From assembly GCA_008080745.1 (NCBI GenBank), contig SHMX01000003.1:60001-92000 (forward strand): 32,000 nucleotides of DNA, read 5' to 3'. This DNA comes from Candidatus Thorarchaeota archaeon (lineage in GTDB: Archaea > Asgardarchaeota > Thorarchaeia > Thorarchaeales > Thorarchaeaceae). Of this stretch, positions 5,387 through 24,954 are shown one piece after another (position 1 is the first letter of the stretch; each line of letters begins with the position of its first letter). The position numbers and the translations under genes were made by a program. The notes below the pieces were generated by a model. The model was not told where the DNA came from and did no database searches. It saw nothing but the letters and a program-made list of their open reading frames with translations.

Positions 5387-5824
5387 TTGCATGCGCTGCC
5401 ACCAAGGAGTCCAAATCAAATGGGCACAGTATGGTTTATAGCCAAAGAATACCTGAAACGGCTTGAGGTCGATTTCGAGGAACATGGGAGAAAAACATTT
5501 AGTCTCTATCCTTTTGGGCAGACTAAAACTGAACAAATTGAGATTTTCCCAGGCACACACTGGATTACATTAACTACAAGATTACAGGACATCTCGGATT
5601 TGCCCGAAGATACCAAACAAGATTTTTGTCAGATATTATTGAAAGCAAATGCCAAACTCGCTGAGGTTAGTTTTGGGATTGATAAGAAGGATTGTGTCAT
5701 AATTCGAAATGCAATTCCTGTTGTGGGAATCAGCTATGACTCGTTTAATGCTACATATGAAGCACATAAGAATGGTGTTAAATTCTATCAAAAAAGTCTT
5801 GCACAAAAAGTTGAATCGAAATAA
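5387..5824 (+). CDS. YbjN-like / type III chaperone-fold protein (tentative)
   Basis: 145 aa. The pattern WITLTTRL...FCQILLKANAKLAEVSFGID fits the YbjN LL..N......F..D signature. Confidence 0.55.
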   Translation: MHALPPRSPNQMGTVWFIAKEYLKRLEVDFEEHGRKTFSLYPFGQTKTEQIEIFPGTHWITLTTRLQDISDLPEDTKQDFCQILLKANAKLAEVSFGIDKKDCVIIRNAIPVVGISYDSFNATYEAHKNGVKFYQKSLAQKVESK

Positions 5825-5858: not shown

Positions 5859-8800
5859 CTATTTCTTCCGTCGAGATGCTAGTATGACTACTAGTATTAC
5901 GACAACACCAGCACCACCAAGCAGAATCAAAAGATCCATTGGTAGTTCGCCACCAGGATTCTCAGGTCCTGTTGGAGAGGTAGTGGTCACGGTTACAACA
6001 CCTTGACCTACAATGTAGGAACCAACCTGTGATGGGTAGTTCTGACCATCAGCTACAACTAGTACTTTGAAGAATACTTGAGTGCCATCTGGGAATGCCT
6101 CAATGATACCGGTCCAGTGAGAACCGTATTCATTGTTCATATCAACCATAGTCCATGTTGATTCATCCGTATTGATTCCGTACAGAAGGTAGACGTCGTA
6201 ATTCTCTACATCAGTAAATATGTCAACACCAATCTCCACATTATCAGTAGAGGTCGGTATGCTTGGACTGACAGAGAAGGTTGAAAACTCAACACCGGTA
6301 ATGGGGCCTCCTTGAGAACCACCATTTGCTGATGTATAACCGACAAAGACTGGGTCCTGATAGACACTATAGCCATCCCACTCAGGGAAGCCAATTGTCA
6401 CATAGAACATGTTACTGCTGAATGACCAACCAGTAGCGCTCTGTCCATTCTGAGATTGGAATGCAGTCTGGAAAGTATTCATGGGAGTAGTATAACTCAA
6501 CACGTCATAGCGTTGAGATGTGTTCTTACCCCAATCATATGCCACACCGCCCATTATCATCTCAGCGAACTTAGCGCCTGATGTAGCAAAGTCAAACGTA
6601 GCAGAAGACACGGTCATATCAGACGTTGCTTCTGTCCCATTAGCATTGACTGTATAATAGTCGCTCATGGTTACGTCGGCAAAGTAGTTCAAAGCTAAGG
6701 ATCGATTAACTAAGTTATCACGTCCACCACTACGATCGACATCCCAGTTTCCAACATAGTTGTCTACTTTGATATCCGCATAGTTATTGATTGCACCTGC
6801 GGTCTCATTAATGTGACCCTGGAAATGTACGAGGAAGGAGAGTTCATCTATTGAAATCTTGGTAGGACGTTCATCAAAGGTTCTCAAGTCAGAACCTTCT
6901 TGAATACCATCGTACCAACCCCAATATCCTCTTAGAGTATATGGAAATACGGTTCCATTGACCTCATTGAATGTTACACCCCATGTGACCTCATCGGTCA
7001 GATTAAGACGCATATAATCACTCTCGTTGGTATTACCATATGCAACACCAGGAGTAACAAATTCGACACTATTAACAGAGTCAGGAATCAAATAGTGAGA
7101 TAGCTCACCACTACCTGGATCTGTAAGGTCGACATCCATTTGGTCGTTCTTGTTCTCATCTTCCCAAATCATTAGACCACTGTATTCATAATGCATGTTG
7201 ATACCAAGCCAGTGCTCAATATCATCTTCTATGTATGAAGTACCATAATCCTGTCCGACACCGAAACTTAGCCAGGTCCATGATTGCTCATTAGAGGTAA
7301 TCCAATCCCAACCATTGGCCTCTGCCTCAGCTACGATATCAGTCCATGTGACATTCTTAGCCATCCATGACAAATCCCAGTAACCTGGTTGTGGATCTCC
7401 TTCTTCAGTTAGGAGAGTAGCAGTCACATCAGCCATCTCGCTCTCGCTAAGTGGACTAAATGTGTTCGCATCATACCAATAGAAGGTCTGATTCCATTCG
7501 TAAGTCCAGGTAAATGTGTCAAGTCCCATCCATGAATGGATGTCCATATTATCACCATATAATGTGGCATTGGGATCCCAATCAATGTGTACCGACATAC
7601 GGTCCCATGTATGGGTCCAACTGTCAGTGGAAGAGTATTCCTCCTTCACAAAGTATTGGTCAGTAGTAGTATCGAGATTACCATCGAGGTCCAGAGCACC
7701 ATTATCAGGGTTGGTTGTCCAACTCTGAACACCCCACATACCCCAACGAGGTACACCGATTACAAGTTCATTGAAGTTCTTGTTTACAGTACTATCGATT
7801 GGCTCAAGTCCGTATACCATTGGGTGACCCCAACGCTGTCGAACTCTCTTGATACTCTCCAAGCTAGCAGCAGCGGTAACCTCTGTTCCATCGTAGGTGA
7901 AGTTAAACATTGGACGAGTACCTCGTTCCATGTTCAAGAAAATGTCACCAGACGCTGTGGCATTAACAAGCCTGAAGGACCAGAAACTGTATCCGTACCA
8001 TAAATGCTCGTAGGTCTCGCCATTGAAGTCAAAGACCCAATCAGCGAGGGTATCGTTGTAGTAGGTGTATGCCATATAGGTAGCAACTCTTGGAAGTTGT
8101 ATCCAATCGGTCAGATTGACCCAAGTACCATTCAAAGCCTTGTAGTAGTAATAGGTGACATTGTCAATGAAGTTTGACTCGGGATATGTCATCTGTGAAT
8201 AGAAGGTTGTTCCATTCAGGTCATATTCATTAATTCTGAAGACATATGTTTCTTGAACTAGCCAGTCAGTATTGTTACTTACTAGATCGAGATAACGGTA
8301 GGTGTCATTGTATTCCTTTGGCCAATTTGAATCGGGCCATATTGGTTCATATTGAATAGACTCCATGACCGTAAATCCAAGATTGTCATTGAAAGTTCCA
8401 ATGTCTCCCGAACGACCCACCATATATGGATTCCATATATCTGTACCATTTGCACTAGTGTAGTGCATGTTTGGATATTCATCCAGATTGTAGGCGGTAC
8501 CACCGACATCTATCCATGCATCGAATTCCGTCATGTTATACACTGGATAGTATGTACCAAGATACTTAGCGAATTTTAGAGTAGGTACCTTTCCACCGTC
8601 AGTATCAACATATTCCATATGACTATGCCATTCTGCGTTAGCACCATCATAAGGCATCTCGTACTGGACAGCATCAATCTCTGTAAACCAAGATCTATGT
8701 ACCCGCCAGCTCTCAAGAACAAATGTTCTCTCAAAACCATCATAATCCATACTATAGTAGTGTAAAGGATAACTGATGTATGTTAGAACTCCATCAATGG

Positions 8801-11765
8801 TAGTTTGGTATCTGTACTGATAATAAATACTATCATAGACCTCCTCGACCTCATAGAGATTTCCATCGAGATCGGTCATGTAATACTTGCTATCTCTACT
8901 TGACCACCACCATTGTGATATTTCCATGGTGCTACTAACACCATAACGAATGAACTTGTCTTGATTATATCGCTCTACTTCTACCTTGTCATAAAATTCA
9001 AAGCTTTGTAGGTTCCATTTCTGGTACTCTGAACCACCTTGGTGAACACCTCCATCGATATCAACCCAATAGAAGTATTCTGTGCTTCCGTGAATCCAAT
9101 ACCGATGCTCTTCCATTGTAGTAAGGAAAGTATCACCAGTGTTAGTAGTCACATTATAGATGTATGCTACATCATCATAGGTCACATAGATCTTTTCAGA
9201 GTCATTTTGACGTTCGTAATAGTAGTAATCCCTATCATTTTGTGGATCCCAGTGATCATAGAAGAAGAACTGTTCCCAAGTGTTTCCACTGCTAGGATCG
9301 AAGTTCTCATAGACTTTGATGGGGATTATTTCACCATTGATTTCAACATAAGGAATCTCTTTACCAGTGAGGTAATCTGAGCCCTCATTTGCATTGAGTG
9401 TATTATTGTAGTAAGCTAGTTGTTGTGTAATTGGTGCTACGTATATCTGATCACCATTGTATTCGAAGCTATTTACCCATTCTCGGTCCCAAGATAGTAT
9501 TTCATGATAACCATAGGGTTGGGAATAGTCTTCATGCCAGGTGTTGTTCATAAAGGCAAAGTTCCACCAGTAACTGGTATCAGCGACAGTTTCACTCATA
9601 TTAACCAAGAAAGAAACAACGAGATCGCCACCATCTGTCCAATTATTGAAACTAGATATCTGACAGAAATCAGCGGTTATAGCAGCCTCGGGGCTTCTTG
9701 GAGGTATGTATTCCTCCTGCCATTTTCCTTCAGCTTGATTATAGTACCACCATTGCCAGTGCCAGCCTTCAACCTCAGTCCACTCCCACTCCCAGTACTC
9801 GCCATAAGCCCAGTCCCAGGTATTGGTAGCTTCATTATATTCATAGTGCCAGCCAGTAGCATTCGTGTAAACAAAATCCCAGTAGGTACCATAAGTGTAG
9901 TTGTATTTCTCTGTTCGATTGAACGCTGTAAAGGTAGGATTGCCGAGCATATCAAGAGTTACTTGATATGTGAGTTGAGAATACCAAGATTCTTCCTCAC
10001 TCCAGTAACCATCATATGCATTTAGAGAGAATCTAGCTCCGTCGATAGAAGCAGCTACTTGTGCACCACCCTGAAGTCTACCGCGAACCATGAAGTTCTC
10101 ACCTTTATCAGTATGGAACATCCAGCTATTGGGTTCAGAACCATCTTCAAAGAGAATCTTTGCAATAGTAACAGGGGTTTCGATTGCGATTTCTTTGGCA
10201 TCTTCATATTCATTCCAAGTCATTGGAGAACCATCTCCACCTGCATTGGGCCAGTATTGATAACCATCTGCACCCATGACGAAATCTTCAAAGTAGAATG
10301 TATGTTGATTAGAAACAGGCATATCTTCTGTGAAATGTCCCACAAAATCAACAACAAGTTCTCCGCGTGCAGTGTAAGCGATACACTCTGATTCATTTAG
10401 CTCAAAGAGGTTTGGAAAATCAGTAGGTATTGATTTTAAAACGAGTTCTTCTTCGTCCCAGATACCCTCAACATAGTGGTCATAAGGATAGACCCATGCT
10501 CTATATCCAACCATTGTATCGAAATTCTCAGTTATGGCATTGTAAATTAGATAGAGGTTCATCTTTTTGGATTCATTCCGGAGAACAACATCATAAGAAC
10601 CAGTCTGAGTGGTTTCATTCCAAATCCATTCAAGGGCATAATATTGTACATCCTCGAATGTGGCGATATCAACATACTCTCGTCGTTGGTATTCACCGAA
10701 TACCTCTCGTTGATATGATACTTCAACAGTTTCATCCCAGACATAGGTCTCCAGAGTGTTGTTGTATATCCAACCACCATTGGTAGTGACGGTTTCCCAG
10801 TGTAATCCAGATTCATTTACCCAAGTTTCAATTGAGTAGGGCATATCAAATACCAGGGAAGCATATTCAATTTCACCAGTGATATTGAAACGCATAGTAA
10901 AGTCAGTTTCACGACTAACAGAGTATAAGGTATCTCCATCTTGGTCAAGCTTCTGAAGTGTGAAGGAACCACCATAAGAGAAGCTCCATGCATCCTCCCA
11001 AGCTATACCAACCGCAATTCCTTGAAACTCGTAACCACTTCCGTAGTTATAGGATCCAATTGAGTTCCAGTTCTTATCCAATACCGTCATGTCTAGTTGG
11101 AAAAGTCCAATTGGAGCACGATTATTGAACTGTACTCTGAATTCTACATAGTATGTATTCGCATCAGAATGATTTGAACAGCTATCGATATCCAAATCCA
11201 TGAAAGGATCAGTTGGATAGGGGTCAGCTAAGCTCATATTTCTAAGATTGGTATAGATCCACCAGGGTTCCCATGTGTACTCCATATCCTCATAAGATAT
11301 GGTAAAGTCAGCACTGAAATTCTCCCAGTCATCTGTCATATACCAACCATGTAGTTCTACACGGCCAAGTTCTCCATTATCGAATACATTCTTTGGAATT
11401 ATCGTTTTGATAGTAATCCATTCATTGATATCTACATACTCATCTTGTTGCATCAGATATCCTGTGGAATTGTATATCTCGAATCGTGGAGATGGACCGA
11501 ATAACCAATTTTTGTTATCCCAAGACCATTCATCGCTTGTCGTGTTTGCATCCTGATGCCATGAAACATATGTACCATTCTCTTCATGGGGCATATATGG
11601 GTCATAAGCAGTGTGGGGTTGAATTGAAGTTACATCTGTTGTATAATCATAAGTAGTAACAGGTACCGCAGAATTCGACCCTACTGCAATCATGGAAACA
11701 AGGAACAACGCAACAGATACAAGTGATAGAATTGTCTTTTGTCTATATCGTCGCATCTTCATCAT
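5859..11765 (-). CDS. Giant secreted, C-terminally membrane-anchored surface glycoprotein (paralog B, 1968 aa)
   Basis: Basic N-terminus plus hydrophobic signal peptide; Trp/Tyr/Asp-rich beta-type sequence; about 40 N-x-S/T sequons by hand count; one Ig-like unit, Thr-rich linker, TM helix and RRKK tail. GGAG RBS upstream. Confidence 0.92.
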   Translation of the reverse strand: MMKMRRYRQKTILSLVSVALFLVSMIAVGSNSAVPVTTYDYTTDVTSIQPHTAYDPYMPHEENGTYVSWHQDANTTSDEWSWDNKNWLFGPSPRFEIYNSTGYLMQQDEYVDINEWITIKTIIPKNVFDNGELGRVELHGWYMTDDWENFSADFTISYEDMEYTWEPWWIYTNLRNMSLADPYPTDPFMDLDIDSCSNHSDANTYYVEFRVQFNNRAPIGLFQLDMTVLDKNWNSIGSYNYGSGYEFQGIAVGIAWEDAWSFSYGGSFTLQKLDQDGDTLYSVSRETDFTMRFNITGEIEYASLVFDMPYSIETWVNESGLHWETVTTNGGWIYNNTLETYVWDETVEVSYQREVFGEYQRREYVDIATFEDVQYYALEWIWNETTQTGSYDVVLRNESKKMNLYLIYNAITENFDTMVGYRAWVYPYDHYVEGIWDEEELVLKSIPTDFPNLFELNESECIAYTARGELVVDFVGHFTEDMPVSNQHTFYFEDFVMGADGYQYWPNAGGDGSPMTWNEYEDAKEIAIETPVTIAKILFEDGSEPNSWMFHTDKGENFMVRGRLQGGAQVAASIDGARFSLNAYDGYWSEEESWYSQLTYQVTLDMLGNPTFTAFNRTEKYNYTYGTYWDFVYTNATGWHYEYNEATNTWDWAYGEYWEWEWTEVEGWHWQWWYYNQAEGKWQEEYIPPRSPEAAITADFCQISSFNNWTDGGDLVVSFLVNMSETVADTSYWWNFAFMNNTWHEDYSQPYGYHEILSWDREWVNSFEYNGDQIYVAPITQQLAYYNNTLNANEGSDYLTGKEIPYVEINGEIIPIKVYENFDPSSGNTWEQFFFYDHWDPQNDRDYYYYERQNDSEKIYVTYDDVAYIYNVTTNTGDTFLTTMEEHRYWIHGSTEYFYWVDIDGGVHQGGSEYQKWNLQSFEFYDKVEVERYNQDKFIRYGVSSTMEISQWWWSSRDSKYYMTDLDGNLYEVEEVYDSIYYQYRYQTTIDGVLTYISYPLHYYSMDYDGFERTFVLESWRVHRSWFTEIDAVQYEMPYDGANAEWHSHMEYVDTDGGKVPTLKFAKYLGTYYPVYNMTEFDAWIDVGGTAYNLDEYPNMHYTSANGTDIWNPYMVGRSGDIGTFNDNLGFTVMESIQYEPIWPDSNWPKEYNDTYRYLDLVSNNTDWLVQETYVFRINEYDLNGTTFYSQMTYPESNFIDNVTYYYYKALNGTWVNLTDWIQLPRVATYMAYTYYNDTLADWVFDFNGETYEHLWYGYSFWSFRLVNATASGDIFLNMERGTRPMFNFTYDGTEVTAAASLESIKRVRQRWGHPMVYGLEPIDSTVNKNFNELVIGVPRWGMWGVQSWTTNPDNGALDLDGNLDTTTDQYFVKEEYSSTDSWTHTWDRMSVHIDWDPNATLYGDNMDIHSWMGLDTFTWTYEWNQTFYWYDANTFSPLSESEMADVTATLLTEEGDPQPGYWDLSWMAKNVTWTDIVAEAEANGWDWITSNEQSWTWLSFGVGQDYGTSYIEDDIEHWLGINMHYEYSGLMIWEDENKNDQMDVDLTDPGSGELSHYLIPDSVNSVEFVTPGVAYGNTNESDYMRLNLTDEVTWGVTFNEVNGTVFPYTLRGYWGWYDGIQEGSDLRTFDERPTKISIDELSFLVHFQGHINETAGAINNYADIKVDNYVGNWDVDRSGGRDNLVNRSLALNYFADVTMSDYYTVNANGTEATSDMTVSSATFDFATSGAKFAEMIMGGVAYDWGKNTSQRYDVLSYTTPMNTFQTAFQSQNGQSATGWSFSSNMFYVTIGFPEWDGYSVYQDPVFVGYTSANGGSQGGPITGVEFSTFSVSPSIPTSTDNVEIGVDIFTDVENYDVYLLYGINTDESTWTMVDMNNEYGSHWTGIIEAFPDGTQVFFKVLVVADGQNYPSQVGSYIVGQGVVTVTTTSPTGPENPGGELPMDLLILLGGAGVVVILVVILASRRKK

Positions 11766-11898
11766 TTCTCCTAGTGCGCCTACCTATCATCCTCACTCCT
11801 GAGTTATCTGTGAGTAATCATCCTTGGAGTAAGGAATCCTCAAGGCAAGTGGCGCGCCTTACAGAGTCTAAGCATACTCCGAAATATCAAAATATAAA
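11766..11898 (-). promoter_or_regulatory. Putative promoter and structured 5' leader of paralog B
   Basis: TTTATA at 11898-11893. The roughly 100-nt leader folds by hand into three stems ending 3 nt before the AGGAGA RBS. Confidence 0.4.
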
Positions 11899-11960
11899 CT
11901 CATACACGATATACCCAATCTCAAAATAGTCTAGTAGTGTTCTATTTTTCGAGAATCAAG

Positions 11961-11997
11961 AAAAAAGAGAGAAAGAAGCAGACTTGCTGTCTGCTTC
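11961..11997 (-). terminator. Intrinsic-terminator-like hairpin after the 2265-aa gene
   Basis: Perfect 9-bp stem GAAGCAGAC-AGCAA-GTCTGCTTC then TTTCTCTCTTTTTT, 8 nt after the TAG. Confidence 0.7.
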
Positions 11998-12005
11998 CGT
12001 ATAAT

Positions 12006-15000
12006 CTATCCGCGTCGCTTGATCAGAACTACAATCAGGAGTATTACAACCACTCCAGCAACTCCAGCAGCAACCATCATGAGTGTTCCCACATCAATGG
12101 GTGTGCTGGGACCAGGTCCGGTCGTTGTTGTGGTAGTATCAGTTGGTTCTTCCTGAACAGTGTAGCTATGAGTGTTACAGACGTTCTCATTGCCTAGGGT
12201 GTCATATGCAACAATGCGATATGTCACAGTAGTGCCCACAGCCTGAGCGGGAATGTCACCAGAGTAGACATCTCCACTTCCAGTCATAGTGACATTGATC
12301 CAATCACCACTTCCAATACGATACTGTAGAATGACATCATCAACACCTGTACTGTCCAATATAGTAGCTGAAACAGTTACCACATCGTCAGGTCGTGGAG
12401 TTGAAGGTTCAATGCTGACATCTAATACGGATGGCCCACTGACATCAGGACCAGAGGCGTAGAAGTGGAAGGTATCGGAATCAGACTCTACTCCATTTCC
12501 AGCACCGTCAATCGCTAGGACGTGGAAGGAAACATAGGAGTCTTCTGGTTGATTAGGAATCGTTCCTTCGTAGGTATCTCCGCTAGTTACAGTCATGGTG
12601 ACATTATGTTCAACAGATTGACTATCCGAATAGGTGAGTATGACCTCTGAGAGACCAGAACCACCAGTATCGGTGACATCTGCGCTGACGATAGCAATCT
12701 CCTTACCTTCAGAATCTGTGCCATTTCTAACACTCTGATTCGTGATTTGGGGATCGATATTATCAGGGAAGGTATAGCTCTGCTGACTTGATACACCCTC
12801 GTTGTCTGCTCCATCAATAGCAACAACTACGTAATTGTAGTCATATTGACCAGCTTGAGACCGAGAGATATCTGCCTCCCATCTGTTACTCGCTGTGTTG
12901 AATGTAGCACTGACATTAGCGTTTGTATCAGTATTCATGACAAGAACATCTGAAACTCCAGAACCAACATCTGAAACCTCGATATCGAGATGCAGATTGT
13001 TAACAGTACCACTTTCAGTGATACTATCCACTGTCGGACTCGTTGCATCGGATGTACCCGAGGATGAGTATCCTACAAAGACGGGATCAACTGTCACCTT
13101 GTATCCATCCCACCACTTGAAGTTAATCAAGGTGTAGAATTGGTTTGAAGACACACTGAAAGTAGTAGCAGTTCCACCAACATCGGACATGTATGTAGCC
13201 TCAAAGGCACTCAGGGGTACCGTCTGAGAATCGACAGTTGCATTGAATGATGCGTTCTTCGCCCATGTATAGGGTGAACCTCCAAGATTCATTGCCGCGA
13301 TTGGTACGCTACCAAACAACTTGGCAGTGAAGTTGGAAGAAGCACTGGTTCCAGTGTTCTCTAACTGTGAATCAAAGTCATCGTGGTATGTTGCATTGTA
13401 AGGTGTATCACCCAATACGATTGACACATCACTGTAAAATGCCAAACCAAGACTGTATCCATCTAGAACGCTTCGCCCACCAGGAGCATCAACATCCCAG
13501 TTACCAACAGTCATGTCGTATTTTATCTCAGCATTGTTAGTAGATTGACCGGTTATTTCACCGCTGAAGTTTACGGTAATGCCTATCTGATCAACCGAGG
13601 CCCCACTTGGACGACTATCAAACGAATTCAAGTCAGTTCCATAGTATTGGCCTTGATACCAGTCCCAATAGGAGTATTCACCAAATGGGAACACAATCCC
13701 TGAAACATTGTTGAAGGTAACACCAAACGTGATGGTCTCATCAACCGCTCTGTAAGCTTCCCCAGTGTCGCTTGAGTTACCCCAAGCCTCACCTGGTCGC
13801 ACGAAGCTGACCGATTCAACATCGACAGGCATCCAATAGTGAGTGATTTCAGAGTCATCCATACTCGCTGTGTTTAGCTCCATAATAGTGCTGTCATCAG
13901 TATCGTTCCAAGCAAACATTCCTGCGTACTCGTACCATATGCTGACATCAGCATATACCGTATCAGAACCGTTCACATATTCAGTCTGGTAATCTTCCGA
14001 TATCTCCCACCAAAGCCAGCTCCACTCCCGACTATCTTCGACAGCCCAAGCCCAGCCCTCCTCAATTGCCTGTTGTTTCAGGTCGGCAGAGGTGAAGTTC
14101 TCAGCCATCCAAGCAACACCCCAATAGCCAGCATTGGGATGTCCCTCAGAATTGAAGACGGTTGTGTTGATGAGATCAAAACGTGAGGAGTTAACAACCT
14201 CGCCAGTTTCGACCTCGTACCAGGTGAAGTTATCCCACCAGTATCCAGTCCAATTGACCGTGTACATTCCCGTATATGAGGACATATAGACCTCGTCCCC
14301 AATCAATGTAGAGTTGGGATCCCAGGTAATATCCACCTTAAGGTACTCCTGTGTGATATTATAGGTCTCAGTGCTATTCCAGGTATTTCTTACAAAGAAC
14401 TGGTCATCAGTGGTGTCTAAATTACCATCTAGGTCAATAGCTCCATTATTTGGATTGGTAGTCCAAGTATCTACACCCCACATGCCAAACTCCGGACTTC
14501 CGGTCACAAAGGACCATTGTTCGCGAACTATGGATATTGGTAGAGGAACATAGTCGAGCTTCTTAGAATGACCCCAGACTTTGTAAGCCTTATAGATCAT
14601 ATCTCTAGATCCTTTGATGACATATTCCTGAGCATTGTGGCTGAAATTGAAACTGGGTAGGTTGTAGTTTCGACCACCTTCAGAGAGACTTACTATCTCA
14701 AAAGTATCAGTCGAATTAACCAGAGCAACATAGTCTTCAATCTCAAGATTCCAGTAGTCAGAATTTGACGTCCAATTTTGGATATCAATATTCCAATAAT
14801 CAACTGTGTAGTTGGTATAGTTATACCAATAACTATTGAACAGAAACTGACCGATATTCGTGGCATTATCGTAGTCGTCTGGCTCCATCACTTCGATTGT
14901 GAATTTTTGCCAGTCATACCATTTGTGCATAGTTCCATTCAGATCATATACATACCAGAACTCAGGTTCGTAGTAGTACCTGTCCGCTTCAATATCATAC

Positions 15001-18000
15001 TTCTCAACAGCTTTGTCAGCAACATATGGATCTCCTGTGTAAATAGAGGTTCCATTCTCAAGGGTGATGTTATAGAAGTAACCACGCTGTAAAGTAGTAT
15101 AATTCAGGTAAGTACCATCTATAGTTTCAACATATTGGTATGCTGGAGCGGCAGTATTATTCCAGTTGTAGATAGCAGCATCATTCTGATTATTCAGGTA
15201 TCCTGAAACCAAATCAAGCCAACCCTGTACCTCGAACTCTCGGGTCTGAGGATTGGTGGTGCCATAAGCTACAGTCCAGTCGTGATGACGAATATCAGGT
15301 ATGAACATACCATCGCGATTGGTAGTCACCCATGGATATTCACTCTCTATTGGATCCCACCGATAATTCTCATTGGTTCCATACCAAGTAAGGTTGTAGT
15401 CAGTCGCTCCAACAGTAGCAATGAAGCCAGAATACTCGTAGCCATATAAAGCGTCAGTATACTTGACTTCTTCCTTGATTGCTTCAACCCATTGCTCTTC
15501 AATGTAGACCCGAGTGTCTGCAGGAGTCTTGTATTTAAGATCCCAGAAGTCCCAAACTTCGGCACCAGGATAGGGTAGCTGTTGGTGATTAGATCCTATT
15601 TCTGTATAAGCATAGAAATCAACAGCATCCTTTGGTAGAGTTATATCATATCCATTCCATGAACCCTGGTACATACGATGCGGCCAAGGACCTCGGAACA
15701 ACCAATTAAGATCTGAGCCATTGTAATAATAATACTCCCAATTATCGGTAAGTGGACAATACATGTCATAAACTTTCAATTCTTCCCAGGTCTGATTCAC
15801 GTAAAGCACATAATGATCAAATTGCCAGAATGGTTCTGTTGCAACGTTTATTGGAATAGTACCATTTGCATATACAACAAGATTGCCTTCCTGTACTGGA
15901 GTAGTATCATTCATGTTCACTATTGTCGCAGTGGCCCAGGTACTCCAATCAGCAAAAATTTTCGTGCCGTTTAGAGCATAGATATACTCTTGCTCACTGA
16001 GTTTCCAATCTGCATAAAACCTCCAATCAGAGGCATTCATAGATGAGAGGAACCAAGTGCCATCAGAGAAGGTGGTATTGAAGATTCTACTCTGATAACC
16101 GGATTCAATGTATATCTTTGTACCGTTCAATAAACGGTAATAGTATATCCAATTACCAGTGTAAGAACCCGTTGACGGGTCATATCCATCATCATCCCAT
16201 TCTTCATAAATGACTGTGTCCCAAGTATAACCGCTCTGATCAGTCTGAGTCAGCGTTCGAACATAGTGTTTTTGCCCATCTATATGAATCCAATGATCCT
16301 TTCGAACCTCATAGAGTTCATCAGTTACATTGTTCCGCATCACAGGTTCTTGATTGGGCGTATCTACAAAGTATCGATCAGTACCGTTCTCATAGCTATA
16401 AACGGAATCTGTGACCCATCCAACAAGAGTATGTTCACCCCACTCCGACTCGTAATCAGTGACCAGACTAAGGTTACCGTAGAAGTAGTCCCATTCCCAT
16501 TCCATATCAGGCATATCAGACTGAACTTCGATATCAAAGATGATACGAAGATCATTTCCAATAGTTGTGTAGGTAAGATTCTCAGCTATTAGAAAGGTTC
16601 CGGGCATCACAGTCGCATTTGACTTACGTGGTACCCACTTGGTTGTCCAATCGTTTGCAGTAAAGTTCCAAATCTTATGTTCCCAATGCCAGCCAGTTAT
16701 TTCAACTAGCTGCCATTCCCAAACGCCAGGTACAATCTCAATTTCTTGCCAATCCCAATAGCTACTATACTCATAGCTTGTACGTTCTGTGAAGTTGTAT
16801 GCTTTAACTTGGAAGTTGCCTTCAGGTGAACCTTTTACATAGATCTCAACCTCAGAGTATTGAGACCAATCAGAGGTTCCATTACTACCCCATTTATGAT
16901 CCCATGCCCGAAGAACGAAGGCTACACCATCAATATCAGAGGCATATTCTGCTCCTCCCTGCAATCGAGATTTGACCTCAAAAGCATCACCATGGTCCAC
17001 CGCAAACATCCAAGAGGGGTCATAAGGTTGACCATCATGTGTCAATCTGACAACAGCAATAGGGCTCTCAACAGATAACTGCCTAAGGGCTTGATATGAA
17101 GACTCATCCGTAGATGAAGCTGTTGGTAAGTAAACAAATGGTGCTAATCTTTTGCCATCGGTACTTAGTACTTTTTCTTCCACCCAGAGTGGATTTGAAT
17201 TATCTCCAGTGGGCAGGATTTCTTCGCTGATATGACCTCGGAATGTAACATAGTCATATCCACCAAGTGTATAGTTTTCGCTTGTTGTTGTGTTTAGTAT
17301 GTAAGGTTTAGGAGCCTCACTGTTTGTTGGCCATGGTTCGTAGATTGTTTCTTGATACCATTGGGGACTGTATCCACTAGGATCATTTGGATCGACAACT
17401 AGAGTTTCATTATCGATTGTGTACGAATACTTGGAACTCCATGTTCCATCACTGAAGTTGAAAATCAAAGCTTGGCGAGCCCAAGCGAAAGATGTCCATT
17501 CATGTTGTATGAACCAATCTGAGCCACTCCACTCATAGTGAACCTGTCGGTATTCCTTACCTGGATCTATCCACTTGGTACGAGTTTCCCAGTGAAACCC
17601 ATTTTTGTATACTGTTGTAGTAACAGAAACGGTATCATTCCAATAATAGGTATCAGTTGTGGAATTGTATTCCCATCCACCAGTAACTTCCTGAGTCTCA
17701 GTATAGGGCCCATAGACCCACTCTTCATCCTCTACAGATTGCGGAAGCTCAATATATACGATAACTGCACCAGGATTATCACTCTTGATTTTGGCAGTCA
17801 TGTTGAAATCTACTCCACGTGTAGCTGAATAGACAGGATTGCCATCATCATCGTAACGATCCCAATAATAGTAACCACCAGCACCTTGCTGAATGACTTC
17901 ATCGAAGGACATACCAACAGCTCTGGCGCTTAGTTCATCGTGCTCACTCTCTGCAAGTGTGCCAAGGTTTTCATCCAAAGCCACTGCTGAAATCTGATAC

Positions 18001-18797
18001 ACTCCTATTGGAGTTGTTGTATTGAATTTCAGTTTGAATGTAGTCCAATAATTTTCAGGTCCTACTTGATAACTAGAATTATCTGCATCCAACTCGACAA
18101 AGGAATCAACTGGTTCACCAAAGGCCATCCAGACAAATTCCTCAAGGCTTCCTGGTTCAGGAGCAAGTTTTGCCTCTGCAAGCTGAGCAATCGGACTTGA
18201 TGTGACTGAATCGGTACCTGTTGGTGGTTTTGGTTCTCCACCACCGCCACCATCATCTCCGCCCGTACCACCTTCCATGGTTGCGTTCTGAGAGGAGTAA
18301 ATCACCCAAGTATCTGTTGGTATCTCATAGATGCCCAAGAACACAATGCCATTTTGGCTAATTGGTCCTTCCTGCATCTGTTCAGATACATTCCAATACA
18401 TTCCCATCAGAGCGATGGAATGAGGAACTTTTCCTTGGAGGGCATTCATTGGTAGTTTAAGTTGGAAGTTAGCCCAACCGTCTACTTCTAACTCATCAGT
18501 AAGAGAGATGAGAGAATTCGAGCTGGCATTTCTAACAGACCAAGTAATCTTTGGCCCGAATTGCCAGTGGCTATGTTGAAATGACTCCTGCCATTCTTCG
18601 CTTATCGTACCCTGATCCCAATTAACATAGGTATAATTGGTTGGTAAAGCAGAAGGACTAGATATTCTAGATTCTGCAAAAGATTCTAAGGAAGTATCAG
18701 CTACACTTGTGTTTGTACCCATAGGCACATACGTGAGTGATACTAAGAATAGTACAATAGCGAACAGTGACAGTATTCTACTGTTCGATGTAATCAT
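12006..18797 (-). CDS. Giant secreted, C-terminally membrane-anchored surface glycoprotein (paralog A, about 2263 aa)
   Basis: Signal peptide; colinear blocks shared with 5859..11765; more than 50 sequons by hand count; three Ig-like repeats, TTTTTT linker, TM helix and KRRG tail. Start set at ATG 18797 after GAGGTG (the ORF track uses GTG 18803). Confidence 0.92.
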   Translation of the reverse strand: MITSNSRILSLFAIVLFLVSLTYVPMGTNTSVADTSLESFAESRISSPSALPTNYTYVNWDQGTISEEWQESFQHSHWQFGPKITWSVRNASSNSLISLTDELEVDGWANFQLKLPMNALQGKVPHSIALMGMYWNVSEQMQEGPISQNGIVFLGIYEIPTDTWVIYSSQNATMEGGTGGDDGGGGGEPKPPTGTDSVTSSPIAQLAEAKLAPEPGSLEEFVWMAFGEPVDSFVELDADNSSYQVGPENYWTTFKLKFNTTTPIGVYQISAVALDENLGTLAESEHDELSARAVGMSFDEVIQQGAGGYYYWDRYDDDGNPVYSATRGVDFNMTAKIKSDNPGAVIVYIELPQSVEDEEWVYGPYTETQEVTGGWEYNSTTDTYYWNDTVSVTTTVYKNGFHWETRTKWIDPGKEYRQVHYEWSGSDWFIQHEWTSFAWARQALIFNFSDGTWSSKYSYTIDNETLVVDPNDPSGYSPQWYQETIYEPWPTNSEAPKPYILNTTTSENYTLGGYDYVTFRGHISEEILPTGDNSNPLWVEEKVLSTDGKRLAPFVYLPTASSTDESSYQALRQLSVESPIAVVRLTHDGQPYDPSWMFAVDHGDAFEVKSRLQGGAEYASDIDGVAFVLRAWDHKWGSNGTSDWSQYSEVEIYVKGSPEGNFQVKAYNFTERTSYEYSSYWDWQEIEIVPGVWEWQLVEITGWHWEHKIWNFTANDWTTKWVPRKSNATVMPGTFLIAENLTYTTIGNDLRIIFDIEVQSDMPDMEWEWDYFYGNLSLVTDYESEWGEHTLVGWVTDSVYSYENGTDRYFVDTPNQEPVMRNNVTDELYEVRKDHWIHIDGQKHYVRTLTQTDQSGYTWDTVIYEEWDDDGYDPSTGSYTGNWIYYYRLLNGTKIYIESGYQSRIFNTTFSDGTWFLSSMNASDWRFYADWKLSEQEYIYALNGTKIFADWSTWATATIVNMNDTTPVQEGNLVVYANGTIPINVATEPFWQFDHYVLYVNQTWEELKVYDMYCPLTDNWEYYYYNGSDLNWLFRGPWPHRMYQGSWNGYDITLPKDAVDFYAYTEIGSNHQQLPYPGAEVWDFWDLKYKTPADTRVYIEEQWVEAIKEEVKYTDALYGYEYSGFIATVGATDYNLTWYGTNENYRWDPIESEYPWVTTNRDGMFIPDIRHHDWTVAYGTTNPQTREFEVQGWLDLVSGYLNNQNDAAIYNWNNTAAPAYQYVETIDGTYLNYTTLQRGYFYNITLENGTSIYTGDPYVADKAVEKYDIEADRYYYEPEFWYVYDLNGTMHKWYDWQKFTIEVMEPDDYDNATNIGQFLFNSYWYNYTNYTVDYWNIDIQNWTSNSDYWNLEIEDYVALVNSTDTFEIVSLSEGGRNYNLPSFNFSHNAQEYVIKGSRDMIYKAYKVWGHSKKLDYVPLPISIVREQWSFVTGSPEFGMWGVDTWTTNPNNGAIDLDGNLDTTDDQFFVRNTWNSTETYNITQEYLKVDITWDPNSTLIGDEVYMSSYTGMYTVNWTGYWWDNFTWYEVETGEVVNSSRFDLINTTVFNSEGHPNAGYWGVAWMAENFTSADLKQQAIEEGWAWAVEDSREWSWLWWEISEDYQTEYVNGSDTVYADVSIWYEYAGMFAWNDTDDSTIMELNTASMDDSEITHYWMPVDVESVSFVRPGEAWGNSSDTGEAYRAVDETITFGVTFNNVSGIVFPFGEYSYWDWYQGQYYGTDLNSFDSRPSGASVDQIGITVNFSGEITGQSTNNAEIKYDMTVGNWDVDAPGGRSVLDGYSLGLAFYSDVSIVLGDTPYNATYHDDFDSQLENTGTSASSNFTAKLFGSVPIAAMNLGGSPYTWAKNASFNATVDSQTVPLSAFEATYMSDVGGTATTFSVSSNQFYTLINFKWWDGYKVTVDPVFVGYSSSGTSDATSPTVDSITESGTVNNLHLDIEVSDVGSGVSDVLVMNTDTNANVSATFNTASNRWEADISRSQAGQYDYNYVVVAIDGADNEGVSSQQSYTFPDNIDPQITNQSVRNGTDSEGKEIAIVSADVTDTGGSGLSEVILTYSDSQSVEHNVTMTVTSGDTYEGTIPNQPEDSYVSFHVLAIDGAGNGVESDSDTFHFYASGPDVSGPSVLDVSIEPSTPRPDDVVTVSATILDSTGVDDVILQYRIGSGDWINVTMTGSGDVYSGDIPAQAVGTTVTYRIVAYDTLGNENVCNTHSYTVQEEPTDTTTTTTGPGPSTPIDVGTLMMVAAGVAGVVVILLIVVLIKRRG
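12148..13049 (-). repeat. Three tandem Ig/FN3-like units (about 100 aa) forming a membrane-proximal stalk
   Basis: Units start DATSPTV (13049), DNIDPQI (12764) and DVSGPSV (12446). They share V.D..GSG(V/L)..V, Y.G.IP (units 2 and 3) and V.A.D..(G/D)N. Confidence 0.75.
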
Positions 18798-18921
18798 AAA
18801 CACCTCATATTTTGAAGTTCGTAATCATCTCAGCGTGCTGGCCATATGTTGCGAAAGATCATATCGCCATAATCCTGATAGATGATATTTACTAATTTCA
18901 ATCTCACAACTCATAATATAA
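18798..18921 (-). promoter_or_regulatory. Putative promoter and structured 5' leader of paralog A
   Basis: TTATAT at 18921-18916; complementary segments 18886-18875 and 18833-18824; GAGGTG RBS before the ATG. Confidence 0.35.
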
Positions 18922-19008: not shown

Positions 19009-21669
19009 TTACATGTTCAGAAATAACCAGGCAAGATGTCTAACCAAATGGGATATCTCTGTTTCAACAAGTGCAGCAATTGCGAGGAAGAAAGCACAGA
19101 AGAGATAAGTCCTCCATACCCTACCATCAGTCAGAAGCTTTCTTGTTTCTTCAGGAATCTTCTCAAATTCCTCAGCCATGATACTGGGAGTGAGTTCACG
19201 AGCAATTCTCAATGATGCTGCAGCAACGAAGAGAAATGCTGGAATCTCAATGATAGCATGGGGAAGAATTCCTGCCCAGAATATCAAAGGATCTGGTTGC
19301 ATCATTGCAAGTCCACCAACGGTTAATGCTGTTGAGAGTACTTCAGATATTGCCAAAGCCATTAGACTGAATTTGATGTATAAGAGAAGTGTATCCTGTT
19401 GTTGAACTTCGGGTTTGTTAAAGAACACTGCTTTATACAATAAGGCTATGACCATTGGAAGCACTATCAATGCAATTAGAGTAAATTGGTCGTCATATAC
19501 AAAATACTCTAAGACAAATAGGACTAACAAGGGTGGGAACCACCAACCACCATCGGTTCCACGTATCTTGTTTATCAACCATATCAGGAAATATCCCAAG
19601 AATAAAATTCCCAATAGAATGCCAACTATCATTCCAATAAAAGCCTCGGCTGTCCATGGTGGTGTTAGTGCTACAGTGGAATTCAGGAGTATCAAAGACA
19701 CTATCAAACCTGCAGCCATTGTGAAAATCACAATAAATACAGAGTAGAGTGCATTGGTTTTTTCCTCATGGCCTTGTCTTCTGACGGCAATCAGCCAGAG
19801 AACCAGTGACCAGAAGACAGGTCCGATTAGAAGCATTAGCAATGTTCGTATCAGGTTGTGCTCCAAGATGATAGGGAGTATTGAACCTGTGGCTGCAATA
19901 GTCCATTCTCCAAAGATAAACTCAAGTCCATTCGGGTCGCCTATCTCTGTTAGGACGGTATATACAAGATAGTCCAAAATTCCTGGTGGAATAATATAGG
20001 ATAATAGAGCTATACCGATGGCTGAAATAATTAAACCACCAAAGAACATGTATACAACATCTTTAATGTCGCGCACATGCACATTTACCAAAGGTCCTGA
20101 TTCAATGCCATGTTTTTGACGATATCTATCACTTGAACGGAGATAGTACATGACAAACATGGTTCCAAAGATGTATAATGGAACATTGATCAGAAACTCA
20201 GACATATACCTAAACAATGCATCAGCTTCTGTTGGAAGCGCAATTAATGGTCGAAGGCGAACTATCTCTACTGAAGCATATTCCATTGGTGTAGGCGAAA
20301 TTCCTAAAATGTAGTCCAAGCTTGGAAATACTATCCAAGTTACAACTGCTAATAGAAATCCACCAATAATAGCAAATCCTTCAACACCACCAGAAACACG
20401 TTTTCTACTGAAGTGTCCCACAACCCCCAAGAATAGAATCATCAAGAAGGGTATTGCAAGTATTAGTAATACCCAACGAGTGGCATTTATCAGTGCCATA
20501 TTGCTTGAGGCATTCATTAGTATTGACGCAACAGTAGAATCAACTTGCCCTGGTAAATAGTTGTATGTGAAATTGTTATTGACAGAAAAGTGAAGAGTTG
20601 CTGCCATAATGGATCCTACAAAGGCTGCAATACCGATGGTAGAGATAAGTACAGAAGCGCCATAATTTGCAAGAGCAGCTTTGAAGTCAAACTCTGATGC
20701 TTTAGATCTAAGCTGAGTGAGAGCTTCAAAAGTACGCTTATAGAAAATAACTGCAAAATCTTCAACCAACGGGAATATTATGATAGCAAATAAAACGGGT
20801 GGAAATGCCAAGACAATTCCAACAAAGTATTGGAATAATACTGTGTTCAGACTGGCGGGATCACCAATCAATCCGTAAATGGAAAATCCAATGGTTCCAA
20901 GAGATAAGAGAAGATTCAGCCTGAAGAACCACCCTAGTACACCGCGCATCATTTCTTCGCCAATCTTCTTATTTCCTAAAGTTAGTCCTGCACCTTTTGC
21001 AATCCTATTAGATGCGGGATAACCAAACCGGTATATCCATGTAAGAAATACAATGATACCATATCCATAGAATGACTCATAATACCCCATGTATACACCG
21101 ATAGAGGGTAAGAGAGTAGCAAGTCCGATTATTAGATAATCTTTCCATGCATCACTATAAGCCTTAGAGATTATCTCTGGATTTAGAGGTTCTTTATCAG
21201 GGATATCAAACTGGATATTGTTTAATCGGTCACGGAAACCTGAAAAACCATCGGTCTCGGGCTCATGTCCAATAATCCTTTTAATAAGATTTGAAAAAGT
21301 TCGTTTCATAGGATCTTGTAGAGCCAATTTTATTGCTAATACTAGCATTCCAAACAAAACAGCAAAGAATGCTACCATAACCCACGTTAGAAAGTCTTGC
21401 AGTGCACTAGCAAAATGAAACAGATATTCCAATGCGAAGAGGTTCCAGAAACCACTATCTGAAACGGGGGAAGTGAACCCTCCAACTACTCCAATAGGGT
21501 AGTACCAAATATTCCATATATAGAAGAATATTGCCCGAACATAGAGTACAGCTAGAAAGGCTTCAATGTACCTGTTTCGTTTTGATCTAAATAGAAGTAG
21601 ATAAACTATTGTCGAGATCAAAGCGGGAGCTAATTCAAACAAGACAGTTGCTAAGTTTAGTTCTGCCAT
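19009..21669 (-). CDS. Large polytopic membrane protein (about 20-22 hydrophobic segments) with C-terminal SpoIIM-like domain
   Basis: SpoIIM (PF01944)-type signatures ILEHNLIRTLL, GILPHAIIEIPAFLFVAAASLRIA and FLAIAALVETEIS. ATG 21669 lies 5 nt after GAGGTG. Confidence 0.8.
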   Translation of the reverse strand: MAELNLATVLFELAPALISTIVYLLLFRSKRNRYIEAFLAVLYVRAIFFYIWNIWYYPIGVVGGFTSPVSDSGFWNLFALEYLFHFASALQDFLTWVMVAFFAVLFGMLVLAIKLALQDPMKRTFSNLIKRIIGHEPETDGFSGFRDRLNNIQFDIPDKEPLNPEIISKAYSDAWKDYLIIGLATLLPSIGVYMGYYESFYGYGIIVFLTWIYRFGYPASNRIAKGAGLTLGNKKIGEEMMRGVLGWFFRLNLLLSLGTIGFSIYGLIGDPASLNTVLFQYFVGIVLAFPPVLFAIIIFPLVEDFAVIFYKRTFEALTQLRSKASEFDFKAALANYGASVLISTIGIAAFVGSIMAATLHFSVNNNFTYNYLPGQVDSTVASILMNASSNMALINATRWVLLILAIPFLMILFLGVVGHFSRKRVSGGVEGFAIIGGFLLAVVTWIVFPSLDYILGISPTPMEYASVEIVRLRPLIALPTEADALFRYMSEFLINVPLYIFGTMFVMYYLRSSDRYRQKHGIESGPLVNVHVRDIKDVVYMFFGGLIISAIGIALLSYIIPPGILDYLVYTVLTEIGDPNGLEFIFGEWTIAATGSILPIILEHNLIRTLLMLLIGPVFWSLVLWLIAVRRQGHEEKTNALYSVFIVIFTMAAGLIVSLILLNSTVALTPPWTAEAFIGMIVGILLGILFLGYFLIWLINKIRGTDGGWWFPPLLVLFVLEYFVYDDQFTLIALIVLPMVIALLYKAVFFNKPEVQQQDTLLLYIKFSLMALAISEVLSTALTVGGLAMMQPDPLIFWAGILPHAIIEIPAFLFVAAASLRIARELTPSIMAEEFEKIPEETRKLLTDGRVWRTYLFCAFFLAIAALVETEISHLVRHLAWLFLNM

Positions 21670-21832
21670 AAACACACCTCGGTGTTATCTGAAGAGTACT
21701 TCAGCGTTAGCGGATAGAAAAAGCTTCGTTGGACGAACTACTTTCATCATATTATCGAATCACCGAAAACTTAAAATACTAAACAATAGTTAAATAGACC
21801 AGAGTATTCCTAAAACAGGAGAAATAATACAA

Positions 21833-22360
21833 ATGGAAATTAGTAAAGAATTAGCAGATATGATAAATGACCAACTGAATTTTGAAATCTACAGTGGTTA
21901 CATCTATCTTGCAATGGCGGCTTGGTTCGAGGACCAAAATCTTGCGGGTATTGCACACTGGATGGAAATCCAGTTTGATGAAGAATATGCACATGCAATG
22001 AGGTTTTGGAGACATCTTTACGAACGAGGTGCCAAGGTCGAATTGAAGGCTATTGAAGGCCCAAAGACTGAGTGGGCATCACCTCTAGAGGCATTTGAAG
22101 ATGCCTATGAACATGAGAAATTAGTCACCCAACGAATCTATAAAATTGGAGAACTAGCTGAAGAACAAAAGGACAGGGCAACTCTGTCATTTCTCAATTG
22201 GTTCTATGACGAACAGGTTGAGGAAGAAGACAAGACCATGGAGATTCGAGATCTACTGAAGATGATCGGTGATAGTATCCCGGCGCTTCTACAACTAGAT
22301 GCAAAACTGGGTGCAAGAGGAGAAGCTCCACCGGTACCACAAGAATCGACAGGTCCATAA
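21833..22360 (+). CDS. ftnA: Non-haem ferritin
   Basis: Ferroxidase motifs QLNFEIYSGYIY, EEYAHAMRF, EHEKLVT and WFYDEQVEEE. Confidence 0.95.
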   Translation: MEISKELADMINDQLNFEIYSGYIYLAMAAWFEDQNLAGIAHWMEIQFDEEYAHAMRFWRHLYERGAKVELKAIEGPKTEWASPLEAFEDAYEHEKLVTQRIYKIGELAEEQKDRATLSFLNWFYDEQVEEEDKTMEIRDLLKMIGDSIPALLQLDAKLGARGEAPPVPQESTGP

Positions 22361-22378
22361 AAACATCTTATGTATTGC

Positions 22379-22414
22379 GCGGCTCAGATAGCCGCCACTA
22401 CTTTTTCTTTTTTT
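22379..22414 (+). terminator. Hairpin plus T tract after ferritin
   Basis: GCGGCT-CAGAT-AGCCGC then CACTACTTTTTCTTTTTTT. Confidence 0.6.
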
Positions 22415-22470
22415 GCATTGATGGGAATAACTTATTTCCTACCGTTTCATTCAATTTCTCTGTGTCAGCC

Positions 22471-24465: not shown

Positions 24466-24954
24466 ATGTCAAAGAGTAAGAAACCATATTCAAAGGTCAT
24501 CTTTGCAGGAACATTTGATAGATTGCACGAAGGGCATAAACATCTCCTTCGTGTCAGTCTTAGCCTTGGAGACCATCTAGCTATAGGTATGACGACGGAT
24601 AAGATGCTTGAGCAAAAAGCAGATCGGGAATCAATCCAATCATATGAAATGAGATACAACAAGCTGATGGAATTTCTCAGAGAGGAAAATGTAGTTGATA
24701 GATGTGTTATTTTTCCAATCAGCACAATTGAGGGGGGTGCAGATAAGATGGAGGATCTAGATGCATTGATAATCTCTGATGATAGAAAAGTGTTGGAAAA
24801 CGCTTTGAGAATTAATCATCTGAGAGAGAAGAATGGTCTACAGAGATTTCATATTGTGATTGTACCTCTGGTCAAGACAGAGGATGGAAAACCGCTATCA
24901 TCAACACGAAAGAGACACGGAGAAACGTTCAGAGAAGAAGATGTTATTTACTAG
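24466..24954 (+). CDS. coaD: Phosphopantetheine adenylyltransferase (archaeal/eukaryote type)
   Basis: GTFDRLHEGH (HxGH), IGMTTD, ALIIS and LSSTR motifs; 162 aa. Confidence 0.85.
   Translation: MSKSKKPYSKVIFAGTFDRLHEGHKHLLRVSLSLGDHLAIGMTTDKMLEQKADRESIQSYEMRYNKLMEFLREENVVDRCVIFPISTIEGGADKMEDLDALIISDDRKVLENALRINHLREKNGLQRFHIVIVPLVKTEDGKPLSSTRKRHGETFREEDVIY

Follow-up and report, generated by a model that had tools for sequence, protein, structure and literature searches.

The gene and its protein product

We analyzed a 32,000-nucleotide (nt) stretch of DNA (contig SHMX01000003.1 of assembly GCA_008080745.1, positions 60,001 to 92,000; here called the window) from an uncultured member of the Thorarchaeota, a group of Asgard archaea, and focused on one gene in it, which encodes a long membrane protein of the SpoIIM/DUF95 family. 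The gene occupies a single intact open frame of 888 codons that begins with GTG at 21675, and no other open frame of comparable size is present at 19009-21675. The true start is likely the ATG at 21669, two codons past the GTG, because the identical database protein (886 amino acids (aa), starting at M3) and all homologues begin there. The database annotation of this protein is 'stage II sporulation protein M' only, and we found no description of long Asgard SpoIIM forms in the literature searched. More than 120 full-length homologues share 42-72% identity with it, nearly all of them from metagenome-assembled Thorarchaeota genomes. It is the sole protein matching PF01944, the Pfam profile of SpoIIM, in the source genome (3.16 Mb, 98% complete).

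SpoIIM/DUF95 is an ancient family that occurs in most archaea and many bacteria and whose biochemistry is unsolved. We found that the protein is built of two modules, an N-terminal module (N-module, residues 1-530) and a SpoIIM/DUF95-family module (residues 531-888). The features of both, together with the adjacent giant genes, are listed in Table 1. We conclude that the protein is a SpoIIM/DUF95-family member of new architecture and does not constitute a novel type of system.

Table 1. Features of the long SpoIIM-family gene and its downstream neighbors (positions in the window; TM, transmembrane).
Feature	Position	Strand	Description
Whole gene	19009..21675	-	888 aa (886 aa from ATG 21669); 20 predicted TM helices; N- and C-termini outside
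N-module, residues 3-530	20086..21669	-	11 TM helices; no known family
First helix of SpoIIM-like module (TM1, 540-560) and outer loop	19885..20085	-	The protein's best match to SpoIIM TM1
HN helix, residues 598-631	19783..19884	-	Probable counterpart of SpoIIM helix 2 (NN motif)
Hairpin 1, residues 632-704	19564..19782	-	Two TM helices; Thorarchaeota family only
Hairpin 2, residues 705-755	19411..19563	-	Two TM helices; all long forms
SpoIIM helix 3 counterpart, residues 762-790	19291..19410	-	Invariant E778, S781, T782
PH helix, residues 796-830	19186..19290	-	SpoIIM helix 4; P805, H806, E810, P812
Inner loop 831-852 and last helix 853-877	19012..19185	-	SpoIIM helix 5; invariant E871
PF01944 match, residues 771-875	19051..19365	-	Profile positions 70-162 of 163
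Two giant paralogous surface-protein genes	5859..18803	-	2265 and 1968 aa (12006-18803 and 5859-11765); directly downstream, co-oriented

Evidence for an interrupted SpoIIM-type module

When the full protein was searched against Pfam, PF01944 scored 44.5 bits against a cut-off of 26.9 (E 2e-11), and the match was confined to the C-terminal segment given in Table 1. PF01944 likewise scored above its cut-off in 49 of the 201 Asgard genomes that we sampled. A protein atlas gave leads to SpoIIM for the C-terminal part, with scores of at most 0.85, and returned nothing for the N-terminal part. When an ordinary SpoIIM from Asgard archaea served as query in a word-based homologue search, it retrieved itself alone, and a search for shorter homologues of the long form gave nothing but cut copies of the long family.

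The first-pass annotation of this DNA had proposed a SpoIIM-type domain split by an insert of about 150 aa, with a first motif at about 19870-19825 and a second, GILPHAIIEIP, at 19272-19241, separated by several extra TM helices that bring the motifs much farther apart than in stand-alone SpoIIM proteins of about 200 aa. Our results confirm what was observed and support most of the architectural interpretation. The first motif, I-L-E-H-N-L-I-R-T-L-L-M-L-L-I-G, comprises residues 603-618 (about 19869-19822), the second comprises residues 802-812 (19272-19240), and a third, A-A-L-V-E, ends at E871. For comparison we used 14 ordinary SpoIIM proteins of 180-250 aa, drawn from Asgard archaea, Bathyarchaeia, Brockarchaeota, Desulfurococcales, Clostridia, Paenibacillus, Dehalococcoidia and Verrucomicrobiota (the TACK, Bacillota and Chloroflexota groups included). 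The distance from N607 to H806 is 199 residues in the long protein versus 49-53 residues in these 14, and the extra stretch therefore measures about 146-150 aa. A contiguous five-helix SpoIIM domain of about 160-200 aa was not found in the protein: four extra predicted TM helices (636-665, 676-704, 713-726 and 730-750) intervene, within residues 632-755.

We then examined conservation in an alignment of 78 full-length homologues with 25-72% identity. Invariant residues are H606, N607, R610 and W622 in the HN helix, where G618 is nearly so; W712, E723, D729, F731 and P740 in hairpin 2; and E778, S781, T782, P805, H806, E810, P812 and E871 in the last three helices. The P-H-x3-E-x-P motif and the glutamate of the last helix are present, and the same columns are invariant in the 14 ordinary SpoIIM proteins. 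The HN helix and the PH helix are the most conserved segments of the whole protein (60% and 62%, respectively). Judged from this alignment, the invariance of polar residues within membrane helices far exceeds chance.

The PF01944 match leaves the identity of the HN helix to other comparisons, and these provide weak but consistent sequence evidence that it equals SpoIIM helix 2. An initial comparison of profiles, for which four ordinary sequences were used, gave no significant match (E 0.43). When residues 534-632 were compared with all 14 ordinary sequences, residues 596-624 paired with the N-N helix (P 0.0033). In a scan of 60-aa windows against the N-terminal half of SpoIIM, seven of the top eight windows (n=53) fell within residues 496-645, and their matches were colinear, with 537-555 on SpoIIM TM1 and 595-620 on the N-N helix. 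When residues 632-754 were removed in silico, the profile-profile alignment with the 14 ordinary proteins continued unbroken from residue 595 through the C-terminus (E 2e-21, 136 columns), and in it H606/N607 fell on n/N, G618 on the family glycine and T782 on the helix-3 asparagine. This result was tempered by a decoy control, in which 5 of 29 other 102-residue windows also lengthened the alignment when fused to the C-terminal half; part of the extension is thus generic to TM helices. In addition, F-H-N-W-R/Q stands at the helix-2 place in contiguous, full-profile SpoIIM proteins of Desulfurococcales and Brockarchaeota. Pfam at E values up to 10 gave nothing relevant for residues 560-700 or for the N-terminal 559 aa.

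The five core helices of the module are TM1, the HN helix, the E-x2-S-T helix, the P-H-x3-E helix and the last helix with E871, and they retain the order, the topology and most of the polar signature of the SpoIIM family. Together, these comparisons support a SpoIIM-type module that has an insertion after its second core helix and is joined to a large polytopic region at the N-terminus.

The insert consists of two hairpins

Comparison across lineages resolved the approximately 146-aa insert into two nested TM hairpins. Hairpin 1 shows 20% identity within the Thorarchaeota family, the lowest in the protein, and its columns are 93% gaps in other lineages. Hairpin 2 is found in every long form and is conserved like the core (55% identity within the family); it starts with W-W-F-P, carries E723 in its first helix, has a Y-D-D-Q-F-T turn whose acidic D-D-Q-F lies at the outer face, and contains P740. 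Hairpin 2 is probably functional. These data indicate that hairpins have enlarged the inner loop that connects core helices 2 and 3; one hairpin is common to all long forms, and the second is confined to Thorarchaeota. The hairpins add helices in pairs, and the core therefore keeps SpoIIM topology.

The N-module and its swapped order in Helarchaeota

About 600 aa of unassigned polytopic sequence had been thought to precede the SpoIIM-like domain. The lack of an assignment stood, as the N-terminal region of about 530 aa gave no Pfam match even at E 10 and no NCBIfam match; the length did not, since only about 530 aa belong to this region proper and the next 70 aa are TM1 and its loop. A separate search of 1.84 billion representative proteins with a profile of these 530 aa gave only 23 matches. 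These are family members or fragments, including cut copies and variants, and all the named ones are from Asgard archaea. Across the 78 homologues, the N-module has an invariant inner-loop motif, Y215-R216-F217...R224, as well as invariant N254, P302 and E305; it also carries outer sequons at N368, N388 and N397.

An 866-aa protein of Helarchaeota (relatives of 858 and 874 aa) carries the two modules in the opposite order. Its residues 19-308 align with 532-884 of the Thorarchaeota protein (probability 99.8, E 1e-28) and cover TM1, the outer loop, the N-N helix, in which the HN motif reads T-N-N, hairpin 2, P-H-x3-E and the last glutamate, without hairpin 1. Its residues 326-859 align with 9-522 (E 1e-10). 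From the swapped order we place the start of the SpoIIM-like module at TM1 (about residue 531) and conclude that the module moves as a single unit. A 693-aa Thorarchaeota paralogue (P0157, G087:C10:62600-64261) joins the N-module to a different C-terminal part, which consists of an extra helix and a soluble beta-rich end and has no SpoIIM match. We conclude that the N-module is Asgard-only and almost always joined to a SpoIIM-like module, in either order, the 693-aa paralogue being the one exception seen.

Of the sampled Asgard genomes, 41 of 43 Thorarchaeota, the one genome of a sister family (1/1), four of five Jordarchaeia and two of three Atabeyarchaeia have both the N-module and the long SpoIIM form; outside these four families we found essentially no others in the sample. 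Most genomes have one copy of the N-module, and a Njordarchaeota copy is also on record. A few Thorarchaeota additionally carry an ordinary SpoIIM of 185-220 aa; the source genome does not. Two database contigs carry long forms of a type that differs from their titles: JAPDJY010000053.1 (L124), titled Thermoproteota, has a Jordarchaeia-type form, and JBHLLF010000017.1 (L081), titled Hermodarchaeota, has a Thorarchaeota-type form of 43% identity.

Predicted structure and topology

AlphaFold2 predicted, with confidence, an all-helical structure for the whole protein (predicted local distance difference test score (pLDDT) 92.6; predicted template modeling score (pTM) 0.89) and for residues 531-888 alone (pLDDT 91.5, pTM 0.86). 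Fold searches of PDB and BFVD with the whole protein and with the module (Foldseek and a wide structural search) gave generic helical bundles at most, and no SpoIIM relatives were found in PDB by sequence. Several four-helix-bundle chains aligned to about 115-123 residues across module residues 68-343, from the HN helix to the last helix; these aligner rows fit, indirectly, a model in which those helices would lie in one bundle.

The 20-helix topology places 43 lysines and arginines on predicted inner loops versus 4 on outer loops, and all loop sequons lie outside. In this topology, the distance to the outer helix end is 4-12 residues for H606, N607, R610, E723, E778, S781, T782, H806, E810 and E871, and D728/D729 lie in the outer turn of hairpin 2. 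This shared depth is the one line of support for a putative convergence of the three motifs in space.

Giant surface proteins and other neighbors

The long gene is flanked by the giant surface-protein genes on one side and, on the other, by a divergent ferritin gene (21833-22360) and an M28 peptidase gene. One or two giant surface-protein genes follow the long gene in 12 loci of the Thorarchaeota order. The giant proteins combine a signal peptide with C-termini that share a Thr-rich linker, G-P-G, a helix and a basic K/R tail. Their signal peptides, including those of orthologues in loci L032-L051, have in common the recurring pattern L-F-[LFM]-[VI]-S-[MLF]-x2-x-[AV]-G-[ST]. With the C-terminal anchors of these neighbors in mind, we considered the N-module as an archaeosortase/exosortase and rejected this assignment, as PF09721 matched neither the N-module nor anything else in the source genome. 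The giant proteins are candidate substrates or partners of the long protein because of the synteny, their signal peptide and C-terminal anchor features, and the absence of an archaeosortase match from the genome. Relatives of the giant C-terminal region in Jordarchaeia and Atabeyarchaeia were found only as smaller, non-adjacent proteins.

Two further features of the locus are conserved. A small gene at 5387-5824 (+), at the far end of the giant genes, encodes a protein of 133-145 aa that shows 50-66% identity in eight loci of the Thorarchaeota family; a ninth locus, in the sister family, has a 23%-identical counterpart, and the protein has a weak match to CesT-like chaperones (E 0.0026). The ferritin, M28 peptidase and cytidylyltransferase genes form a block (21833-24954, +) that is syntenic with the long gene, and divergent from it, in 12-14 loci of the order.

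Comparison with known SpoIIM/DUF95 systems

Relative to the stand-alone five-helix proteins of PF01944/COG1300/arCOG01994 (180-250 aa), the long form shares the profile match over helices 3-5, P-H-x3-E-x-P, the last-helix glutamate, the helix-2 asparagine with a glycine 11 residues later, and the helix order and topology. It differs in that it is four times longer, is fused to 11 helices, has an N-terminal half that is undetectable by hidden Markov model (HMM), carries the two hairpins between helices 2 and 3, and has a threonine for the helix-3 asparagine with a glutamate one turn earlier.

Long SpoIIM proteins also occur in the TACK group, in Desulfurococcales (509 aa, L137:8732-10258) and Brockarchaeota (542 aa, L131:8633-10258). 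They share a C-terminal SpoIIM domain behind a polytopic region (about 330 aa, unassigned) and H-N in helix 2, but their domain is contiguous, with a full profile match (positions 2-163). Because the Asgard N-module is not related to the N-terminal region of these TACK proteins (E 0.24), we regard them, on sequence grounds, as an independent fusion of the same SpoIIM domain.

DUF95/SpoIIM is a hallmark of circular-bacteriocin gene clusters, where it has been proposed to carry out leader cleavage and circularization (10.1101/2025.10.31.685828; PMC13463998). Those DUF95 proteins, which are accompanied by a YIP1-family protein and an ABC transporter, belong to the same family as the long form, and the cleavage and ligation proposed for them would make the His/Glu site catalytic. 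To our knowledge, the activity of the circular-bacteriocin DUF95 proteins is itself unproven. Precursor, Yip1 and ABC genes were not found beside the long gene, and the sole Yip1 gene of the genome is on another contig.

The ordinary SpoIIM genes (185-220 aa) of some Thorarchaeota (L002:1059-2711, L003:1081-2723; also L004 and L005) have neighbors of their own. In L002, L003 and L005 the gene is followed by a further membrane-protein gene, which in L002 encodes Yip1 (PF04893, E 8e-10) and in the other two matches no family; in L004 it is followed by a 210-aa gene and an ABC ATPase-like gene. A homologous small open frame for a hydrophobic, Gly/Ala-rich protein of 117-127 aa precedes the ordinary SpoIIM gene in L002 and L003. 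These loci may represent a circular-peptide locus in Asgard archaea, because the same set of genes makes up the arCOG01996 cassette and the circular-bacteriocin clusters of bacteria.

In sporulation, SpoIIM is a scaffold for peptidoglycan hydrolases, and a role in membrane remodeling has been predicted for it in archaea (PMC5898192). Compared with SpoIIM of the Bacillus subtilis SpoIID/SpoIIM/SpoIIP engulfment complex, the long form shares family membership of its C-terminal helices; its architecture differs, and its host is an archaeon without the peptidoglycan partners, as no match to PF07454 or PF08486 (SpoIIP/SpoIID) was found in the source genome.

SpoIIM also occurs in an operon with aliA, a gene of archaeal lipoprotein lipidation (PMC12462473). 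Because such operons are found in Euryarchaeota, we considered the N-module as a candidate AliA/Lgt-like lipoprotein lipidation enzyme: it had no Pfam match, PF01790 included, and Lgt was absent among the structural matches listed for the whole model.

Proposed function and alternatives

Our results suggest, with about an even chance of being right, that the long form is a two-module membrane protein with an outward-facing polar pocket that processes or binds a component of the cell envelope. The invariant polar residues H606, N607, R610, E723, D728/D729, E778, S781/T782, H806, E810 and E871 would be located in the membrane's outer third and would together form a single predicted pocket, open to the outside, that binds a cation or a substrate. 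This pocket might process a component of the envelope at the outer leaflet, in a reaction of peptidase or transferase type; this role is suggested by analogy with the DUF95 proteins that have been proposed to cleave and ligate circular-bacteriocin precursors. In Thorarchaeota the giant surface proteins of the neighboring genes could be the substrate, and the N-module might supply substrate handling or a second activity.

A working site is favored because the asparagine, the histidine and the two glutamates persist through fusion, insertion and permutation, and because hairpin 2 brings extra acidic residues to the same depth. By analogy, an outward-facing processing or binding pocket for envelope biogenesis is the most likely role. 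A catalytic or binding site in the SpoIIM-like module, as had been suggested from the sequence at the outset, is thus plausible, and circular-bacteriocin DUF95 proteins lend it backing in the literature (PMC13463998). A bolder version, which we think improbable, holds that the protein is a self-contained, Asgard-specific maturation enzyme for surface proteins, in which a membrane-embedded peptidase/transpeptidase pocket at the outer leaflet would be combined with lipid or glycan handling by the 11-helix module. SpoIIM is linked by operon to archaeal lipoprotein biogenesis, whose signal peptidase is missing so far (PMC12462473).

Several observations count against this explanation, in its architectural or its functional part. 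We know of no SpoIIM family member for which enzymatic activity has been demonstrated. The asparagine of the helix-3 N-G motif is not kept: T782 is aligned there in the profile-profile comparison, and E778, S781 and T782 are invariant in its place, with the new glutamate one turn earlier. By HMM, no N-terminal half of SpoIIM was detected, as all long forms in the 201 sampled genomes match profile positions 62-163 only and none reaches below position 62, and an HMM of residues 534-632 scored ordinary SpoIIM proteins not above shuffles. In the decoy control, the true window was the best of 31 by a narrow margin (146.3 versus 144.4). Mean-field co-variation (146 sequences; effective number (Neff) 72) was too noisy, with too few sequences, and its top pairs (L612-I803, L612-F863 and F621-F713) are suggestive only. 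The giant genes are absent beside the long genes of Jord-, Atabey- and Helarchaeota and of one Thorarchaeota genus, from which it follows that the core function is more general, and the intergenic distances of about 200-330 nt do not require co-transcription. Finally, B. subtilis SpoIIM is known as a scaffold only (PMC5898192).

This last point leads to an alternative that we consider unlikely, namely that the long protein is a non-catalytic membrane scaffold like B. subtilis SpoIIM in the SpoIID/M/P complex. Its polar residues would then hold the bundle or dock extracytoplasmic partners, which in Thorarchaeota would be the giant surface proteins, anchored or positioned by it. The sole characterized family member is such a scaffold (PMC5898192), the synteny with the giant genes in the Thorarchaeota order suits this role, and the conserved outer loops, which include E-I-G-x-P-x-G-L-E (577-585, after TM1) and the outer beta-hairpin 456-479 of the N-module, offer possible docking surfaces. 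However, some ten invariant charged or polar residues at one depth exceed usual packing needs, SpoIID and SpoIIP were not found in the genome, and the neighbors are not conserved beyond one order.

A different doubt concerns the extent of the SpoIIM-derived part. If only the last three helices derived from SpoIIM, as a C-terminal remnant appended to an unrelated HN helix and earlier helices, then the profile limits seen in every long form, the shuffle-like scores of the N-terminal half and the ability of decoy helices to extend the alignment would all be expected. We hold this to be quite unlikely: the protein's best matches to TM1 and helix 2 stand directly upstream in the correct order, with a P value that favors the pairing; the N-x10-G spacing and the HN/NN motif are common to the HN helix and SpoIIM helix 2; hairpins with an even number of helices preserve topology; and the unit that moved in Helarchaeota begins at TM1, not at helix 3.

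Least probable of all is an ion-coupled transporter or flippase, in which the His/Glu/Asp/Arg cluster would relay cations or protons and the translocation domain would be the 11-helix module, for although the protein has twenty helices with buried acidic and basic residues and ordinary SpoIIM genes are frequently beside ABC transporter genes (PMC5898192), the structural searches gave no transporter fold for the whole protein or the module, an internal repeat typical of transporters was not noticed, and the weak ABC-2 permease match over 728-822 (E 0.012) lies below any threshold.

Implications

The annotation 'stage II sporulation protein M' conceals both the architecture of the long form and its Asgard N-module. 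For the SpoIIM/DUF95 family, the long Asgard form offers independent clues to a role: the helix-2 asparagine, the helix-4 histidine and glutamate, and the last-helix glutamate have been kept despite a fusion, the insertion of two hairpins and a swap of the domains, which points to a functional site rather than to packing residues; if the maturation-enzyme version of the proposed function were true, it would be the first catalytic assignment for the family. For the archaea themselves, our analysis delimits a 530-aa module that is restricted to Thor-, Jord-, Atabey-, Njord- and Helarchaeota. Because it is present in nearly every Thorarchaeota genome sampled, the N-module is likely part of the basic cell-envelope machinery in a lineage close to eukaryotes.

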